Source: Anaerolineales bacterium (GTDB taxonomy: Bacteria > Chloroflexota > Anaerolineae > Anaerolineales > E44-bin32). From it: 64,000 nucleotides of DNA. The notes beneath the pieces were generated by a model. That model saw nothing but the letters and a program-made list of their open reading frames with translations, did not search any database and had not been told where the DNA came from. Within the stretch, counting starts at the first letter, position 1. Every line of letters starts with the position of its first letter. Positions 1,309-12,633 of the stretch are shown here, piece by piece. Both the position numbers and the translations under genes were made by a program. Location of the stretch: assembly GCA_040899905.1 (NCBI GenBank), contig JBBDZX010000005.1, positions 629,722 through 693,721 of the forward strand. The letters run 5' to 3'.

Positions 1309-2804
<1,496 letters not shown>

Positions 2805-3813: not shown

Positions 3814-3885
<72 letters not shown>

Positions 3886-3894
3886 CCTCTTCCG

Positions 3895-3960
3895 GTTGCC
3901 AGTTCCCGGTTTCCAGTTTCCAGTGAGGGCACTGGGAACTGGCGACTGGAAACTGGCAAC
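3895..3960. repeat. 66-nt imperfect palindrome built from CCAGTTY heptads in the tRNA-Gly/tRNA-Cys spacer
   Basis: GTTGCCAGTTCCCGGTTTCCAGTTTCCAGTG-AGGG-CACTGGGAACTGGCGACTGGAAACTGGCAAC. The arms pair with a few mismatches. Confidence 0.7.
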
Positions 3961-3970
3961 TTCTCTTCCG

Positions 3971-4041
3971 GGCGACGTCGCCAAGTGGTAAGGCAAGGGT
4001 CTGCAAAACCCTCATCACGGGTTCGAATCCCGTCGTCGCCT
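3971..4041 (+). tRNA. tRNA-Cys (anticodon GCA), no encoded CCA
   Basis: GGCGACGTCGCCAAGTGGTAAGGCAAGGGTCTGCAAAACCCTCATCACGGGTTCGAATCCCGTCGTCGCCT. The acceptor stem GGCGACG/CGTCGCC pairs and the anticodon loop is CTGCAAA. Confidence 0.92.
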
Positions 4042-4362
4042 CCTGAACAAGGGGCATCGTTAGAGGGCGTGTAAGGGTCTCCGGAAAGGATGGAGAACCC
4101 TATACGCCTTCTTCGATTCCGTCCAAGGGGCATGGGAAACCAAGGCGTTTAAGGGTCTTGGGCTCCCCTTTAGCCCAGACAATGCCAGGCAATACCAGGC
4201 AACAGGAGGCAATGGACGTCCCCAAAGGAGGGACTACCAAGAGAGGCAAAAGGCTCTCCGAGGGTACCATGAGCCACGCGGCCGAGCTTAGTCAGACGCT
4301 CCTCCAGATGCTGGCACATCTCGACATAGTTGGTCGTCACGTGCACATCTCGCCAAGCTCCC

Positions 4363-4390
4363 TGGCTCGCGTCGCAGGACTCGAACCTGT
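4363..4390 (-). other. tRNA 3'-end-like fragment with encoded CCA
   Basis: The minus strand reads ACAGGTTCGAGTCCTGCGACGCGAGCCA (T-arm, acceptor 3' strand, CCA). No complete cloverleaf can be built upstream, because only 55 nt lie between the complementary GCGTCGC and GCGACGC. Confidence 0.4.
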
Positions 4391-4406
4391 AGGGCCCGGT
4401 GTCTCT

Positions 4407-5510
4407 CTAGCTTGCCGCGACGCTGGCTGGCTTGGCAAACGTCCTTCTCTGCAGCCAGAAGGCTACGTTCACCAGGCCGATCATGACCGGCACCTCGACC
4501 AGCGGCCCGACGACCGCAGCGAAGGCTTCGCCTGATGAGATGCCGAAGACAGCCACGGCCACAGCAATCGCCAGTTCGAAGTTATTGCTGGCGGCCGTGA
4601 AGGCCAGTGTGGTCGTCTTGGAGTAGTCGGCTCCCACAGCCTTGCCCATGAAGAAGCTCACCAGGAACATAAGCACAAAGTAGAACAGGAGCGGGATAGC
4701 GATCCGCACGACGTCGAGCGGGATGGTGACGATCAGGTTGCCCTTCAGGCTGAACATCACCACGATGGTGAACAGCAGGGCCATCAGCGTGATGGGGCTG
4801 ATCCGAGGGATGAACTTCTCGTGGTACCACTCCTTGCCCTTGGCCCGGACCAGGAGGAGGCGCGTCAGGAAGCCGGCGAGGAAGGGGATCCCCAGGTAGA
4901 TGAAGACGCTCTTGGCGATCTCGCCGATCGTGATATCGACGACGTTGCCCTGCAGCCCCAGCTTGGCTGGCAGCACGGTGATGAAGACGTAGGCATATAC
5001 ACTGTAGAAGAGGACCTGGAAGACGCTGTTAAAGGCCACCAGGCCGGCGGCGTACTCGGTGTCGCCCTTCGCCAACTCGTTCCAGACGATGACCATGGCG
5101 ATGCAGCGCGCCAGGCCGATGAGAATCAAACCGGTCATGTACTCGGGGTAGCCGCGCAGGAAGATGAACGCCAGGGCGAACATCAGGAGCGGGCCGATCA
5201 CCCAGTTCTGGAGGAGCGACAACCCCAGAATCTTCCAATTGCTGAAAACGTCGCCCAGCTCCTCGTAGCGCACCTTCGCCAATGGCGGGTACATCATCAG
5301 GATCAGCCCGATGGCGATCGGGATGTTGGTCGTCCCGACCGAGAACCGGTTGATGAAACCCTCCACGCCAGGGACGAAGAATCCCAGCGCCACGCCGATG
5401 GCCATGGCGAGGAAGATCCACACCGTCAGGTAGCGGTCCAGGGTGGACAGTTGCTTGGTGACGCCGGTTTCAGCTGCCGGTGCAGACGCCAAGGAAGCCG
5501 GTGTTGCCAT
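4407..5510 (-). CDS. acr3: ACR3-family arsenite efflux permease
   Basis: 367 aa and multi-TM. The sequence [23 protein letters not shown]...[25 protein letters not shown] is typical of ACR3/ArsB(ACR3) transporters. Confidence 0.95.
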
Positions 5511-5512
5511 GT

Positions 5513-5722
5513 CAGTTCGCCTCCGACGATAGAGCGGTGGTCAGCCAGGTCGTGACCTCCGCCTCGTTGGGAATCCGGCCGGCGCAGACCAGGTTCTCAT
5601 TGATCACCAATCCAGGCGTCGCCAGGACGGGGTACTTCATGATCTCGGGGTAAGCGGTGACCTTGATGAACTCGGCCTCCACCCCCAGGTTGGTTACGGC
5701 CTGACGACTGACCGCCTCGACC
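5513..5722 (-). pseudogene. thioredoxin-fold (redox-active disulfide protein 2-like) gene lacking its 5' end and CxxC
   Basis: The frame reads ...[64 protein letters not shown]. This matches the C-terminal two thirds of small ars-linked thioredoxin-like proteins. No start codon or CxxC remains. The stop lies 2 nt before the acr3 ATG. Confidence 0.6.
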
Positions 5723-5795
5723 CACCGGCGATCTGCAGCCGGGCCGGATGCGCAAGCGCCTTTAGGAATTCAGCCGTCGGGTCGTATCTCTTCAT
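5694..5795 (-). pseudogene. arsR: arsR remnant (first ~22 codons only)
   Basis: MKRYDPTAEFLKALAHPARLQI is the start of an ArsR/SmtB HTH. The frame then runs out of frame into the thioredoxin-like remnant and stops. This is consistent with a roughly 300-bp deletion. Confidence 0.6.
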
Positions 5796-5805
5796 CCGTT
5801 TGTCC

Positions 5806-5821
5806 ATTCACGTATACGAAT
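5806..5821. promoter_or_regulatory. candidate ArsR operator (imperfect inverted repeat ATTCACGTATACGAAT)
   Basis: The dyad ATTC-N8-GAAT lies 11 nt upstream of the arsR remnant ATG in an AT-richer patch. Confidence 0.3.
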
Positions 5822-6170
5822 ATGGTATCCGCGCTCTGGCTACATGCAAAGGAATGAATGTCACGCCCTGCGGGTGACACTGGATGGGATCACGCGCTCC
5901 CAGAGCTGGAAACGGGCATGGAACGCTGCTCCGAATCGCCGAAGAAGGAGAGCAAGGCGGCTGCACTGTACCCTTCGTGTCGCAGCTGCTTCCCTTTCGG
6001 AGAGACCGACATGCGCGTCTGTGGCCCCGACGATGGCGGTATCTAGCTTAGATGCAGTTATATCTGTGGCTTGGCCCTAGAAGATAGTCAAGGGTCTGGA
6101 TCCGCCAGGCGACCTAGAATCAGCAGAACCCTATACGGAATTCGGCCAAAGGCGATTAAGAGTTTGAAGC

Positions 6171-6218
6171 GCCAAGGTCGGGTCCTGCAAAACGGGTTCG
6201 AATCCCGTCGTCGCCTCC
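6171..6218 (+). pseudogene. pseudo-tRNA-Cys (D-arm piece, anticodon loop and T-arm/acceptor 3' strand; variable region and 5' acceptor missing)
   Basis: GCCAAGGTCGGGTCCTGCAAAACGGGTTCGAATCCCGTCGTCGCCTCC compared with the intact GCCAAGTGGTAAGGCAAGGGTCTGCAAAACCCTCATCACGGGTTCGAATCCCGTCGTCGCCTCC. Confidence 0.7.
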
Positions 6219-6394
6219 TTCAAGTGCAGCACCCAGCATCGAGCCACCAGCAATCAGGACACACCCGTCCAGTGCATGACTGCTTAGACTGGGTGCTGTG
6301 GGCTGGATGCTGGCGGCTGCTTTTGAGGCAAATCCCTCGTCGCCGCTGAAGTCTCTCCCTCTAAGGGCCGTCTCCGGCCTCGCTACGTGAAACC

Positions 6395-6472: not shown

Positions 6473-8461
6473 CTATTGGGCGAACGAGGGCGTCGCCGTT
6501 CGCCTCGGCGTGCTAGTCGGGGTAGGCGTCGGCGATGGGCCGCCTGGTGTCGGCGTGCGGGTGGGCGTCGACGAAGGGCCGATTGCCGTCGGCGTGCGCG
6601 TCGGCGTGGCCGTCCCCCTGCCGCCTCCCGGAGTTGGCGTGCGAGTGGGCGTCGCCGATGGACCGCCTGGCGTCGGCGTGCGGGTCGGAGTGGCAGTGGG
6701 CCCCAGAGGTGTGGGCGTACGCGTCGGGGTGGCCGTCCCCCTACCGCCGGCGGTGGGAGTTTGCGTCGGCGTGGGCGTCGGCCCGGTGGCCGTGGCGGTC
6801 GGCGTCGGGATCCCGCTGCACCCGGGCAGTCCGAAGGCGCCGATGCGCGTGCGCCACCCGGCGGCGCTGTTGCTGGCGTAATACTCCTGGGTGTACCAGA
6901 AGGTACAGTCGTCCACCGGGTCGACTGCCATCATGCTGTAGTCGCCCCATCGCCCACTCGCGCTACTCTGAGAACCACCGCCGGCAACGATCACGCCCTC
7001 GCCCTGGGGCATCGTCCCCAGCGGATCTGTGCTCAGCCGCCCGGTGTAACGAACGGATGGAAAGACCGTCCTGCTCGAAATGCTGTACCCCAAGGCCATG
7101 TTGCCGTTCTCGTCCATGGCGATGCTGCCCATCCACCGATGATGGCCGTCCGGCGAGTAGGTGCTCTGCTGGTGGATGGTCCAGCCGCCTCCGTTTTTGC
7201 GAAGCTCGTACCAACGGATGCCGGCGCGGTTGGTGCCGGTGGCATCGACGGTGTGGTTGGTGACCAGCGTCTGATAGCCTCCGAAGTTGCGGTATTGGAG
7301 CCGATACATCAACCGATCGGAGATGGCATCCAGCGCCGTCCCGCCCGGCTGGGGGATGCAGTTGCGCGAGTAGTTGCACATATTCGAGTCGAACGCCGCC
7401 GTACCTAAATCCCCCACGTGGGTGAAGGTCGAGCTGGCCGGGGTTCCCCAATTGACGTCGAACTCCCACATCTGAAGCTGATCCGGCGAGTAGCCCCAGG
7501 CGTCGTCATCCACCTGGGCGAATGGGTTGGGAGCGTTTCCCGGAGGGACAGGACCGTCCAGGTCGGCCGGAAGCATGCCGCCCAGGTTCGGATCGATGGG
7601 GAACAGGTCGAAGTACACCATGTCGGCCGCCAGGCCGAGCAGCATCTGGTCGCGCTCAAACGCGACGACGCCCTGCCCGCCCCAGGAGAAAGAGATCTGA
7701 TTGAACTGGTTGACGGACATGTAGTAGCCGTCCGGCCACAAGCCGAACTTCGGGTAATCATTCAACTTGGTGACACTGATCAGGAACTCGTAGCGGTGGT
7801 AGGCCCCGGTGGGGTCGCCGGTCTGCGAGACGGCAATGCATTCGTAGAAGGGTCCGACCGGGTCGTTGGGCAGGGCGAACTGCGTCAGCACCCATCGGTC
7901 CGCCAGGTGGTCGTAGAAGACGATGGGATCGCCGTCGTTGGTCGTCTGGCATGGCCCGCCAAAACCATTCCAAACCGTATTGCTACTCATGGGACCCATG
8001 AGCAGGTTGCCCGACCGATCCCAGATGGCGAAGGAGAGATTCACCATCTGCACGTAGTGGTTCGGCCCCACATCCCCAACGGTGTCCGGAGGCAAAACGC
8101 CGTTGATGTTGTTGATACCCTCGAAGTTCACGGAGGTGCCCGGGATATCCTTCGAAGGTTGTTCGTCTTGGACAATCGGGTCCTCATCCGGCGGACCCGC
8201 TTCCCTCTTTGGGCGCGTCAGGCGCGGGATCACACGCAGGGGACCGATCTGGGGAGCGGAAGACAAAATGGCGCGCAAGGGACCTGACGTGTCGTAGCGG
8301 GTCGCCGGGCGGACGATGGGTACTCCTCCACTCTGGCGCACAGGTGCGGCTGGACCACCGCCCCGCAAACCCTGACCGGGACCGGCTGAGGCCACCACGG
8401 TCACGAGCCCGAGCAAGATAATGCCTATGGATAGACCGCGTACATTACGTTTCATGAGCAT
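6473..8461 (-). CDS. secreted protein of unknown family with C-terminal Pro/Thr-rich tandem repeats
   Basis: The start [27 protein letters not shown] (signal peptide) lies 8 nt after GGAGGAGG. The roughly 540-aa globular body is not recognised. The last ~110 aa are (G)[11 protein letters not shown]-type repeats. Confidence 0.85.
6500..6800. repeat. imperfect ~40-45-nt tandem repeats encoding the TPTRTPTP tail
   Basis: GGCGTCGGCGTGCGGGT-like units recur along the plus strand. Confidence 0.6.
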
Positions 8462-9219: not shown

Positions 9220-10677
9220 CTAGTTGTTTTGCCCAATCCAACCTGAGGGCACCGCGCCCGGGTCACCCTCCGCGCACACCTGCCCTCCGCAAAAGTAGAT
9301 GTCGCGTTCCGGCAGGTTCAGTGGAACGAAGGAGCCGACATTCTGAGCCGTCAGATCGAAGGCCGAACCATACTCGCCAGTGAAAGCCCCCACCAACTTC
9401 AGCGGGTGGCAGTCAGAGCCGGGTTGCTGACAGGTAGAGTTGAGTGTGCCGAAGCGGGTGACAAAGCCATCCGCGGTGACACGGCCCGGGCGTGGGTCAG
9501 TGTCGAACCCGGGCAGGTTGTCCCAGGCTTCCGGGATCTCGCCGGTCACTTCGTGAACCCGCGTCGTGCTGTTGTTGTATTTACACCCGGGCACGGGTGA
9601 GAATGTCAGGCCTCCGTCCTGCGAGCACAGCCAATGGAAGGTGAACGGGTACGTGAGGTCGGCAGCGTTGAGTATCTGGTAGGTGTCGCGCGCCCTGAAG
9701 AGCAGGGCGAACAACTCGCTGCCGCCGTCGATAAACTGCGGCTCGCTGATCCAGGTCGTGTTCGCGGGCGGCCGCCTCTTGATCACGAACGAGTAAGACG
9801 GGTATCGGTTGCACGGCGGCGCGCCGTTGAAGCAGTCCACGCTGAAATACGGCTCACGGGCCGGGTCGTAGGCCCCCGGCGGGGTGTCCGGGTAGGGCAG
9901 GATGGTCCCCTGGTAGGGACTCGTGCGCTGGCCGTAGTCCTGGTGTTGGCTGACGAAGATGTAGCCTTTGTCGGACGGTTCGCTAACGCGGCACTGGCGC
10001 AGGAGCCCTACCGCACTGTGGATGCGCGCCTCGAACTCAATCGAGTAGTTGCCGAAGCTGTGATACTGAACGACCAGCGCATCCAGGCCGGTCGGTACGC
10101 CCTCCCTGCCGGCGCATCCATCCGAGTGTTGCAGGGTCACGTCCCACTTCATACCGCCATGCTTCATCGTGTTTTCCATCGGCGACGAAGGGTTGGCATG
10201 CCCGACGCCCACATGACCAAGTAATGCGTGCAAATCAAAACCGGGGAATGCCGCCGCCACATCCTGCGTAAACGGATTCTGGCCGTGCTCATGGTCGTAG
10301 TGACAACGCCGCTCGCTGTCCCAGAGCGTGTGAAACCGGCTGGTGTCGTGCGCCTCGCCGGATCCAGGACAAAGCGGAGCGTCCGGATACGGACCATTGC
10401 CTCCCGGTCCAGTCGTCGGGGAGGATTGCGGAGTTGGCGACGACTGGGTCTTAGTGGGCGCCGGTCTGTGCAAGTGAGCTGGCGTAGTGCTGGCCAACGG
10501 CGTACCACTCGCCAACGGCGTAGCGCTGGCCAACCTAGTGGGACGGGCAACCGGCACGGATGGAGCACCCCCCACCTCTACCAGATCGTTCCCGGCTGAG
10601 ACGAGAAGCCCCACGCCGACCAGGAAGGCAGTCAACAGTGCAGGCCTTTGGATCGACGTTGCCATTCTCATGGACAT
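9220..10677 (-). CDS. secreted hypothetical protein (~485 aa); the frame continues 36 coding-like codons beyond its TAG, to 9109
   Basis: It has a signal-like N-terminus (MSMRMATSIQRPALLTAFLVGVGLLVSAG) and a Pro/Thr/Ser-rich linker followed by a Cys-containing globular domain. No family was recognised. The start could be 10677, 10671 or 10665. Confidence 0.8.
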   Translation of the reverse strand: MSMRMATSIQRPALLTAFLVGVGLLVSAGNDLVEVGGAPSVPVARPTRLASATPLASGTPLASTTPAHLHRPAPTKTQSSPTPQSSPTTGPGGNGPYPDAPLCPGSGEAHDTSRFHTLWDSERRCHYDHEHGQNPFTQDVAAAFPGFDLHALLGHVGVGHANPSSPMENTMKHGGMKWDVTLQHSDGCAGREGVPTGLDALVVQYHSFGNYSIEFEARIHSAVGLLRQCRVSEPSDKGYIFVSQHQDYGQRTSPYQGTILPYPDTPPGAYDPAREPYFSVDCFNGAPPCNRYPSYSFVIKRRPPANTTWISEPQFIDGGSELFALLFRARDTYQILNAADLTYPFTFHWLCSQDGGLTFSPVPGCKYNNSTTRVHEVTGEIPEAWDNLPGFDTDPRPGRVTADGFVTRFGTLNSTCQQPGSDCHPLKLVGAFTGEYGSAFDLTAQNVGSFVPLNLPERDIYFCGGQVCAEGDPGAVPSGWIGQNN

Positions 10678-10897
10678 CCTCCCAACGCAAGTAACCCCGA
10701 GCGGGAGGCTCCGGCCATTCCTGCCAGGTTGGGCCACCTCTGAGGGTTAATCCCAGAGTACTGGCGGCGCACCACCCGGTCAATGAAACCTCTGTCCGGG
10801 AGCCTTATCGTCTAGTTGTTGGAGCTATTGTCCCGATTCGGATACCGTCCCTCGCATCCGGTCTCGACGCTTCCTAGTCCCACCCGTATACTCCGCC

Positions 10898-12085
10898 GTG
10901 ATGGAACCAGGTGATTTCCGAAACCGTCGGCTTTTCCCCGGGCTGGAAGGCGGACCGTTCGAGATCGTTGTCACCCGGCTCGAAGCCATCGAGGCAATCC
11001 CCGGCGTCGTAGTCGGCCTCGGCTTGGCCGTATGGGCCGTTTTGATAAGCCGCGGCGATCCGGTCCGTCTTTTCACTCTGGCCGGCTTCGTGATCGCCGA
11101 CTGCCTCTTGCTTTTGGCCATTCACTGGCGCCGGGTATCCTTCGGTCCAGTCAAGGGTCCCTTGCTCGGCTTGGCGGTCGGCCGAGGTTTGATCGCGTTT
11201 GTCCCCGGGCCAGTCTCCATCCTGGTCCAGGTCGTAGCCACGGCTTCCGTCTTGTACGCGTTCTGGCTGTGCCCACAGTCACTCGGCCTCAGCCGCGAGG
11301 TTCTCGTCACGCCAAAGCTCCCGGGAGGCGCGGTATTTCGGGTCCTGCACTTCGGAGACCTTCATCTGGAACGGGCGGGACCCATGGTGGATCGGCTTGT
11401 ACGTCTCATCCGATCCGTTTCCCCGGACTGCATTCTGATCTCCGGCGACTACCTCAGCTACTCTTCCATTGACGACCCAGCGGCTTGGGAGGCGGTTCGC
11501 AAGTTTCTCTCCCAACTGAGCGCACCCCGCGGCGTGTTCGTCGTCGCCGGGACCCCGGCGGTCGACCGGTTGGAGCTCCTGCCTCGCCTCTTCGGAGGAA
11601 CCGGTGTCCGCTGGCTCGATGACGAGAGTGTGGCCCTCGAGCAAGAGGGTTGGCCCATCGAGTTAGTCGGGGTCACGTGCACTCACAAACCCTTCGAGGA
11701 CGCCCCGCGGCTGGCCCGGCTGCTGAACGGCGATCCAGGTCGCTTCCGCATCCTGCTGTATCACACACCCGACCTCGCGCCGGATGCTTCCAGGCTGGGG
11801 ATCGACCTCCAGCTCTCGGGACACACCCATGGCGGTCAGATCCGTCTCCCTCTCTTCGGCGCCCTGTACACCTCCTCGCTTTATGGAAAGTGCTTCGAGG
11901 CCGGCCGCTATTCCTTGGGTGGAATGACGCTCTACGTCACCCGTGGGATTGGGATGGAGGGACGCGGCGCCCCACGCATTCGCTTCCTTTGCCCGCCCGA
12001 AGCAACCCTTTGGCAGATTTCCGGTGGGCCGACCTCTCCAGGCTGGGCGTCGGATGGAACGGGTACAATTCGCTCGTCCCCGTGA
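10898..12085 (+). CDS. membrane-anchored metallophosphoesterase (calcineurin-like)
   Basis: The N-terminal TM helices are followed by HFGDLH, SGDY and GHTHGGQ motifs. Confidence 0.85.
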   Translation: MMEPGDFRNRRLFPGLEGGPFEIVVTRLEAIEAIPGVVVGLGLAVWAVLISRGDPVRLFTLAGFVIADCLLLLAIHWRRVSFGPVKGPLLGLAVGRGLIAFVPGPVSILVQVVATASVLYAFWLCPQSLGLSREVLVTPKLPGGAVFRVLHFGDLHLERAGPMVDRLVRLIRSVSPDCILISGDYLSYSSIDDPAAWEAVRKFLSQLSAPRGVFVVAGTPAVDRLELLPRLFGGTGVRWLDDESVALEQEGWPIELVGVTCTHKPFEDAPRLARLLNGDPGRFRILLYHTPDLAPDASRLGIDLQLSGHTHGGQIRLPLFGALYTSSLYGKCFEAGRYSLGGMTLYVTRGIGMEGRGAPRIRFLCPPEATLWQISGGPTSPGWASDGTGTIRSSP

Positions 12086-12633
12086 TGGAATTCATCCACA
12101 CCTCGCTTCCCGCCGTCGTGCTTGTGAAATCTGGAGCCTTTTCCGACGCGCGCGGCTACCTCATGGAGACATACCGCCAGCGCGAGTTCGCCGAGGCTGG
12201 GATCTCTCTCCCCTTCTTGCAGGACAACCACTCGCACTCGCTCGGCGGTGCGCTGCGCGGACTGCACTATCAGGTGAGGCACCCGCAGGGAAAGCTCATC
12301 CGCGTCGTCGACGGCGAGGTGTTTGACGTAGCCGTGGACGTGCGTCGCGATTCGCCCACCCTCGGTTCGTGGACAGGTGTCACCCTTTCGGCAGAGAACC
12401 GGCTGCAATTGTGGATCCCGCCGGGATTCGCCCACGGGTTTTACGTCACCAGCCCGGCGGCCGACGTGGTGTACAAGATGACCGAGTACTACCAAGCGGA
12501 ATGGGAGCGCACGATCCGCTGGGACGATCCCGACATCGGCATCCGCTGGCCGCTAGAGGGCGGGTCGCCGCCCTTGGTTTCGGCGCGGGATCAGGCCGGG
12601 TTGCCCTTCGCGCAAGCGGAGAAGATCGAATGA
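12085..12633 (+). CDS. rfbC: dTDP-4-dehydrorhamnose 3,5-epimerase
   Basis: MEFIHTSLPAVVLVKSGAFSDARGYLMETY...GLHYQ...GKLIRVVDGEVFDVAVDVR...WIPPGFAHGF. The ATG overlaps the upstream TGA. Confidence 0.95.
   Translation: MEFIHTSLPAVVLVKSGAFSDARGYLMETYRQREFAEAGISLPFLQDNHSHSLGGALRGLHYQVRHPQGKLIRVVDGEVFDVAVDVRRDSPTLGSWTGVTLSAENRLQLWIPPGFAHGFYVTSPAADVVYKMTEYYQAEWERTIRWDDPDIGIRWPLEGGSPPLVSARDQAGLPFAQAEKIE

Follow-up and report, generated by a model that had tools for sequence, protein, structure and literature searches.

A probable fossil remnant of an integrative element, carrying an arsenite efflux gene, at tRNA-Cys in an Anaerolineales chromosome

How did an intact arsenite efflux gene, accompanied by fragments of other ars-cluster genes, come to lie between a tRNA-Cys gene and a second, partial copy of that gene's 3' end? 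This arrangement is found within a 64,000-nucleotide (nt) stretch of the chromosome of an Anaerolineales bacterium (Chloroflexota; assembly GCA_040899905.1, contig JBBDZX010000005.1, positions 629,722 to 693,721), referred to here as the window. We place a probability of about 0.75 on the answer that the segment is a fossil islet without an integrase, anchored at a tRNA gene (tDNA), resembling a cis-mobilizable element (CIME) and belonging to a tRNA-Cys-specific family of integrative elements; as such, it is an ordinary and well-understood kind of genomic island. According to this reading, an integrative element would have entered the 3' half of tRNA-Cys(GCA) in a Chloroflexota (Anaerolineae-like) chromosome by site-specific recombination, and window positions 4045-6219 would be its decayed, non-autonomous remnant. 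The attachment (att) site of the family would have three parts, namely an upstream arm of ~135 nt, a tRNA-Cys copy of ~52 nt that extends from the anticodon stem through the 3' end, and a downstream arm of ~170 nt, the last of which would provide the regenerated tRNA gene with a replacement hairpin behind it. After integration, the recombinase would have been lost and most of the cargo deleted, leaving a fragment of an ars cluster in which only ACR3 is intact.

The direct repeat and the empty site in a relative

The tRNA-Cys(GCA) gene at 3971-4043 (plus strand; ARAGORN; Rfam, 68 bits) is intact and would be the integration target, on the attL side of the islet. Its upstream neighbor in the tRNA cluster, tRNA-Gly(GCC) (3814-3887, plus strand; ARAGORN; Rfam, 74.7 bits), lies outside the islet and is identical in L054, a relative introduced below. 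The window contains two exact copies of the 25-mer GGGTTCGAATCCCGTCGTCGCCTCC and no more, at 4019-4043 and 6194-6218; the 25-mer had no matches in 100 shuffles, and none is expected by chance. A preliminary description of this DNA had reported this tRNA 3'-end repeat, and both copies were confirmed, the identity in fact extending to 28 nt in the same orientation (4017-4044 and 6192-6219, plus strand) and covering the T arm, the 3' acceptor strand, and CCT. The right copy, a displaced tRNA-Cys 3' fragment that marks attR, is directly preceded by CTGCAAAAC (6185-6193). In agreement with its earlier placement inside a pseudo-tRNA, it lacks the 5' acceptor strand, as well as the 9 nt CCTCATCAC that form the anticodon-stem 3' strand and the variable loop. 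When a tRNA finder was run at relaxed thresholds, as had been proposed, the pseudo-tRNA was seen only at the ARAGORN 90% threshold (-ps90), as a 68-nt tRNA-like object at 6151-6218 with the wrong anticodon; ARAGORN made no call on the right copy at its default setting, and Rfam gave no match to it at E ≤ 10. The spacer between tRNA-Gly and tRNA-Cys is filled by an inverted repeat (3895-3960; 31-nt arms, 84% complementary, 4-nt loop), and a similar sequence is present in L054.

Two relatives, L054 (JGI Ga0483975_0000117) and L055 (ENA k141_1783067), were reached via homologs of a 672-amino-acid (aa) protein encoded downstream of the islet. L054 is the closest relative found, syntenic with the window at 78-86% nucleotide identity over ~16 kb, and L055 shares 75-79% nucleotide identity with it. 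A scan of one genome per species with the 25-mer yielded 51 loci, nearly all in metagenome-assembled genomes (MAGs) of Chloroflexota, and the sole identical sequence found was a 3.9-kb Logan contig (SRR27977660). In L054, tRNA-Cys (11208-11280, minus strand) abuts a homolog of window 6220-6384 (local alignment, z = 20 versus shuffles), with no ars genes at the tRNA gene and no CAAGGGTCT site outside the tRNA itself. The sequence that follows tRNA-Cys in the window, here called the left arm, shows no relationship to the L054 flank (z = 2.2). The related genome with an empty tRNA-Cys site that the preliminary description had called for is thus provided by L054: window 6220-6384 (plus strand), whose homolog comes immediately after the L054 gene, is the flank that tRNA-Cys originally had in the chromosome, and what lies between the repeats was inserted into tRNA-Cys.

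The native flank forms a long hairpin with imperfect pairing (6220-6326), which has TTTT at its end and a terminator-like call at 6302-6314, and contains a third, degenerate copy of the tRNA 3' end, GGCAAATCCCTCGTCGCCGCT, at 6328-6348. This older copy is common to the window and L054; the L054 flank also carries a long imperfect hairpin, and one further degenerate tRNA 3' copy is present in L054. A 1.4-kb stretch of L054 that is not in the window (9655-11045, read on the minus strand) holds an insertion sequence-like pseudogene (HTH_23 and an integrase-core-like frame with stops), and within the same stretch lies a partial tRNA 3' copy, GATTCCCACCATCGCCTCCT. In L055, at 11974-12283, the intact tRNA-Cys is oriented away from the gene homologous to that for the 672-aa protein, and no tRNA-Gly lies upstream; compared with the window, the segment comprising the tRNA and the island has therefore been inverted or rearranged.

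Comparison of the tRNA-Cys genes of the window and L054 showed that the first 46 nt are identical and that 5 of the following 27 differ, all in the T arm (positions 47, 48, 55, 62, and 63; P = 0.005). No differences between the window and L054 were found in tRNA-Gly and tRNA-Phe. Such divergence is expected if element DNA regenerates the tRNA 3' end, and it suggests that the 3' part of the window tRNA-Cys was regenerated in this way. Base composition does not set the islet apart (GC content, 0.56-0.63 inside versus 0.58-0.75 in adjacent intervals on both sides).

The arms of the attachment site

Just inside the repeats, the preliminary description had noted three pairs of blocks, which it read as eroded tRNA or att duplications. 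The pairs are present where it placed them: AAGGGTCT occurs at 4073 and 6090, with all four exact copies in the window lying within 3995-6097; the exact 13-mer AGAACCCTATACG occurs at 4094 and 6125; and GGCGTTTAAGGGTCT-like motifs are found at 4066, 4094 (minus strand), 4144, and 6151. The origin proposed for them did not hold up. Alignment of the left block (4045-4175) with tRNA-Cys was no better than alignment with shuffles (z = 1.1-1.5; P = 0.10-0.19), and that of the right block was marginal (z = 2.2-3.5), arising through one 13-mer, AGtCAAGGGTCTG. By comparison, the blocks aligned with arms at other loci at z = 8-30, as follows.

The left arm (4045-4213, plus strand; downstream, or P' type) starts with TGAACAAGGGG and is 79% identical to L055 and 75.7% identical to L004. 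Aligned with the sequence downstream of tRNA-Cys or its partial copies, it gave z values of 18-30 for L055, L004, and L043, a weaker value for L007 (z = 7.6), and a weak one for L050 (z = 3.2). It contains a 19-bp hairpin (4066-4108), in which six pairs show compensatory changes that keep the pairing across six sequences; a T-run follows the hairpin in L004 and L043. The native flank has a hairpin and TTTT of its own, and the hairpin of the element may replace the terminator that was displaced from the tRNA gene. The hairpin is followed by ATTCCGTCCAAGGGGCATGG (4115-4134), a right-arm motif in reverse complement, by another AAGGGTCT site, and then by 10-bp repeats of the form CCAGRCAATR (4175-4213); a GGCGTTTAAGGGTCT site lies at 4144-4158. 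The 10-bp repeats are unique in the window, and they also follow partial copies in L012, L050, L055, L056, and L058.

The right arm (6055-6191, plus strand; upstream, or P type) matches the ~135 nt upstream of partial tRNA-Cys copies and is collinear over ~132 nt with this region in L007, L012, L018, L024, and L055 (z = 8-15). Scanning metagenomes with the conserved right-arm pattern added eight members (L056-L058 and L060-L064) and one chance match (L059), and in L070 two modules were found 7.8 kb apart. The arm carries site 1, TCAAGGGTCT (6088-6097), an inverted site, AGAACCCTATACGGAAT (6125-6141), and site 3, GGCGATTAAGAGTTT (6151-6165), and it ends in a decayed anticodon stem-loop, CCAAGGTCGGGTCCTGCAAAAC (6172-6193). 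Among family members, ~52 nt of identity are tRNA-derived, starting from GCAAGGGTCTGCAAAAC in the anticodon stem. The right copy in the window is a decayed version of this family copy, with the 9-nt deletion and with substitutions in the anticodon-stem strand, and the 28-nt repeat is the surviving part of a repeat that originally measured ~52 nt and started in the anticodon stem. These lesions in the right att copy make it most likely that the islet is now immobile and fixed in place. The displaced tRNA-Cys fragments of L055 (12480-12552), L060, L061, L062, and L064 carry a hairpin-forming insertion of 25-32 nt in the T loop, between TTC and AATCC.

The two arms are related to each other by partial symmetry. 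When reverse-complemented, the left arm aligns with the CCATGACCCTTAGACGGAAT...AAAAGGCGTGCAAGGGTCT segment of the family right arms (z = 8-12.6), and this inverted motif has only two matches in the window, at 4116-4131 (minus strand) and 6126-6141 (plus strand). The pattern AAGGG[GT][CT] occurs five times in the 271 nt of the arms versus 0.07 expected, and both arms are rich in CAAGGGTCT, which is identical to the 5' strand of the anticodon stem. The collinear blocks are therefore real, and their source is a motif repeated within a partly palindromic array of sites and not tRNA debris; the inner degenerate pieces appear to be mostly the conserved recombination arms of an element family. We infer that the CAAGGGTCT motifs are putative recombinase-binding sites, a role that would account for their resemblance to the tRNA, and the identity of the motif with an anticodon-stem strand would fit core-type recombinase sites. 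The family arm pattern had no match in viral contigs; the 25-mer matched one viral contig, of a different family.

The ars cargo, the integrase search, and neighboring genes

The intact gene of the islet encodes a 367-aa ACR3 arsenite efflux permease (4407-5510, minus strand; Pfam SBF, 7e-62), whose closest homologs are 92% identical and lie in Anaerolineales contigs. On the same strand, it is preceded by a Thioredoxin_3 gene (redox-active disulfide protein 2-like; 5512-5722) that lacks its first ~16 codons (open frame, 5512-5682; Pfam, 5.8e-16, profile positions 20-75 of 76) and by the promoter region and first 28 codons of arsR (HTH_5; 5694-5861), which is then out of frame (identified by translation; tblastn, 4.7e-10). 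On the other side of ACR3, the first ~46 codons of a CMD (AhpD-like) gene (~4214-4346, minus strand) are left, cut off at the arm junction (tblastn against L065-L069, 1e-7 to 4e-7); by blastn, window 4294-4343 aligns with L065 9187-9236 in this remnant. The preliminary description was right in listing the cargo as ACR3 with arsR and thioredoxin-like remnants and had missed the CMD 5' remnant.

Large chromosomal clusters on Anaerolineales-type contigs (L065-L069), far from tRNA-Cys, preserve the parental gene order arsR, ArsP, SBF-like, CDF, GCV_H, DGC, OsmC, Thioredoxin_3, ACR3, and CMD. Window 4408-5722 is 86% identical at the nucleotide level to Thioredoxin_3 and ACR3 of these clusters, starting 48 nt into the thioredoxin gene, and window 5725-5861 matches the arsR promoter and first 28 codons at 72% identity (blastn, L066 1573-1709). 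These identities and the CMD remnant trace the cargo to an ars cluster conserved in Anaerolineae, of which it is a fragment. Like arsR-ACR3 operons, the islet has an intact ACR3 preceded, at the same 1-nt spacing, by the same small Thioredoxin_3 gene. Unlike them, it has an arsR cut after 28 codons and joined to the thioredoxin remnant at 5722/5725, with the N-terminal part of thioredoxin and ~6 kb of the parental cluster deleted between the two and CMD gone past codon ~46, so that a functional arsR-ACR3 operon is not present. Because ACR3 lies behind the arsR promoter without a functional ArsR, its expression would be constitutive, and it is probably the one working gene of the islet.

Two further features of this region were considered and set aside. 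The peptide ...AWRDVHVTTNYVEM..., encoded at 4215-4346 on the minus strand, was examined as a possible tyrosine recombinase C terminus; Pfam found nothing in it, and tblastn identified it as the start of the CMD gene in L065-L069. The intergenic region between ACR3 and the CMD remnant (4352-4412, minus strand) contains a T-arm-like GGTTCGAGTCC followed by ...GCCA and is closed by a 7-bp stem, GCGTCGC/GCGACGC. A tRNA fragment at this position was rejected, as ARAGORN made no call there even at its 70% threshold and no counterpart was found among the loci.

As noted previously, no integrase remains; none was detected in any frame of the window. A hidden Markov model (HMM) of tyrosine integrases, derived from those of L053 and L025, found nothing better than E = 0.85 in all frames of the 64 kb, and Pfam scans of the open reading frames of the island gave no integrase. 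At other loci, tRNA-Cys is closely followed by integrase genes in L022 and L025, and an integrase gene abuts a 46-nt tRNA-Cys copy in the viral contig L053. The contexts of a PLD-like gene that follows the 10-bp repeats contained no family recombinase, and two PLD contexts were without any att modules.

Several contigs carry more than one insertion or copy at tRNA-Cys. Three exact copies of the 25-mer delimit islands of 4.8 and 12.4 kb in CAWDZQ010000003 and of 2.9 and 36 kb in CAWAND010000001, and two more Chloroflexota MAG contigs have two exact copies each. In L024, a 6.4-kb island lies between tRNA-Cys and a partial copy, and L055 contains a cargo-less unit of ~270 nt, in which the hairpin arm is directly followed by a complete right arm and partial copy. 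The arrays, the adjacent integrases, and the older degenerate copies therefore support repeated use of the tRNA-Cys site, and the early suggestion that this gene is a recurrent integration hot spot is borne out, in the window itself by the copy at 6328-6348.

Two other genes in the window show features of their own. A gene for a CcrM-like DNA methyltransferase (N6_N4_Mtase and RAMA; 1309-2544, minus strand) has an in-frame stop at 2065-2067 (DLGF*ILNE) where the L054 ortholog has Trp (DLGFWILNE), and it is either a pseudogene or the product of a sequencing error. In the 672-aa secreted protein, the C-terminal ~130 residues (6473-6900, minus strand) consist of Pro/Thr-rich repeats (TPTRTPTP...), which raise the local GC content to about 0.75; homologs with variable Ig-like or PKD tails are widespread in Chloroflexota.

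Alternative explanations and comparison with known systems

Four observations weigh against the interpretation of 4045-6219 as the remnant of an integrated element. The junctions predicted for this strain are ...CCCTCATCACGGGTTCGAATCCCGTCGTCGCCTCCTTCAAGTGCAGC for the empty site and ...GGGTCCTGCAAAACGGGTTCGAATCCCGTCGTCGCCTCCTGAACAAGGGGC for the circle, and JGI metagenomes gave no match to the empty-site junction of this very strain. The right att copy bears the T arm of the regenerated tRNA and not that of the L054 type, which a single integration with a crossover in the anticodon loop does not predict. The T-run after the left-arm hairpin is weak in the window, and a simple terminator scan made no call there. 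Finally, no recombinase gene was found beside any of the ~15 family att modules examined, by HMM search of the fetched loci and Pfam analysis of arm-adjacent genes.

The first alternative to be weighed is that of the preliminary description, in which the inner blocks are eroded tRNA-Cys att duplicates from several successive insertions at one site. More than one event at this locus is indicated by the degenerate copy at 6328-6348 that is common to L054 and by the further one in L054, and tandem arrays with three exact copies do exist in CAWDZQ010000003 and CAWAND010000001. In addition, CAAGGGTCT is identical to the anticodon-stem strand, and the L055 hairpin arm runs straight into the right arm and partial copy without cargo, so that window 4144-4174 could be the stump of a lost middle att. 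However, the similarity of the blocks to tRNA-Cys is confined to a motif of 8-13 nt, with P values of 0.10-0.19 on the left and a marginal result on the right; T-arm or acceptor sequence occurs in none of them; their order and spacing are conserved beside partial copies in many genomes; and the covariation of the hairpin points to constraint rather than erosion. The lost middle att, possible by the comparison with L055, is unnecessary, since L004 has the hairpin, the site, and the 10-bp repeats in the same order within one arm. We therefore regard successive erosion as an unlikely source of the blocks. A local tandem duplication of tRNA-Cys that decayed to a pseudo-tRNA, with the ars genes brought between the copies by an unrelated rearrangement and no mobile element involved, would be in keeping with the resemblance of the right copy to a tRNA with internal deletions and with its ARAGORN call at a relaxed threshold. 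It is scarcely credible, as the sequence upstream of the right copy is the family arm of other genomes and not tRNA-Cys 5' sequence, L054 has an empty site, and the cargo is foreign, a piece of a cluster whose location elsewhere is chromosomal and distant from tRNA-Cys.

A different possibility is that the islet belongs, as one cassette, to an array system, in which integrase-less cassettes, each with a ~190-nt module of right arm and half tRNA-Cys at its end, are inserted and shuffled at tRNA-Cys by a recombinase encoded elsewhere in the genome, loosely in the manner of an integron. No recombinase was seen in any family member; cassettes measure ~0.27 kb (L055, no cargo), 2.2, 2.9, 4.8, 7.8, 12.4, and 36 kb; the modules are 85-95% alike across differing cargo; and the arms show an elaborate, symmetric site architecture. 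Against this, the 36-kb and 12.4-kb islands were read only in part and may hold an element-borne integrase, integrase decay inside accreted arrays is a known default (PMC5704250; tycheposon islands), deletion between repeated sites would readily account for a cargo-less unit, and the att core of the window islet is itself damaged. The comparison with an integron cassette array also fails in that no integrase was found and that the modules are tRNA-Cys halves with arms, not attC sites. Membership of the islet in such a system is accordingly improbable in our estimation. The broader idea, that the ~190-nt module and its inverted partner arm define a cassette system of Anaerolineae-like Chloroflexota, with integrase-less segments of 0.3-36 kb stacked and exchanged at tRNA-Cys by a recombinase encoded elsewhere, is likewise doubtful; if true, the system would be a tRNA-anchored analogue of the integron and the window islet a dead cassette.

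The preferred explanation, a decayed islet of an integrative element family, can be set beside several described kinds of island. The signature of tDNA islands is said to go back to Williams in 2002, and CIMEs, decayed remnants left by integrative and conjugative elements (ICEs) or by integrative and mobilizable elements (IMEs) and still bearing attL and attR, were reportedly treated by Pavlovic in 2004 and by Bellanger in 2011. The tDNA island signature is used by Islander (PMC4383910; Hudson et al. 2015), and the islet resembles the islands so recognized in that a regenerated tRNA gene stands intact at one end, the 3' fragment displaced from it lies in direct orientation at the other, and relatives are without the insert; the family att identity, starting in the anticodon stem, corresponds to the "anticodon-centred" class. 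It differs from them in having no integrase gene inside, a damaged right att, a size of 2.2 kb that is far below the typical one, and only 28 of ~52 nt of the repeat surviving. CIMEs and their tandem accretion have been reviewed (PMC5704250), and, as in these decayed, att-retaining elements, integration and transfer genes have been lost from the islet, both arms and repeats are kept, and tandem arrays occupy the same target in relatives. The islet has, however, no known parent ICE or IME and no sign of conjugation, it belongs to Chloroflexota and not Firmicutes, and no autonomous family member was found among the fetched loci. The 9-nt deletion in the attR core also makes its cis-mobilization doubtful. 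The tycheposons of Prochlorococcus, in which tRNA-anchored islands build up by successive integrations (bioRxiv 10.1101/2020.12.28.424599), likewise lie by a tRNA gene with partial tRNA copies, have degenerate elements pushed inward by newer arrivals, and carry cargo for local adaptation, which in the islet is arsenite efflux; the islet lacks the genes that are their hallmark (integrase, excisionase, primase, and helicase) and is found in another host lineage.

The general understanding of such islands is unchanged by this islet. On the reading favored here, it records the horizontal gain of an arsenite efflux gene, and the decay that followed, at a tRNA hot spot of a phylum that has received little study. 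It further provides an alignable att architecture for a Chloroflexota tRNA-Cys element family, comprising a core, two arms, a replacement hairpin, and repeated CAAGGGTCT motifs, with which islands can be mapped in MAGs without integrase genes.

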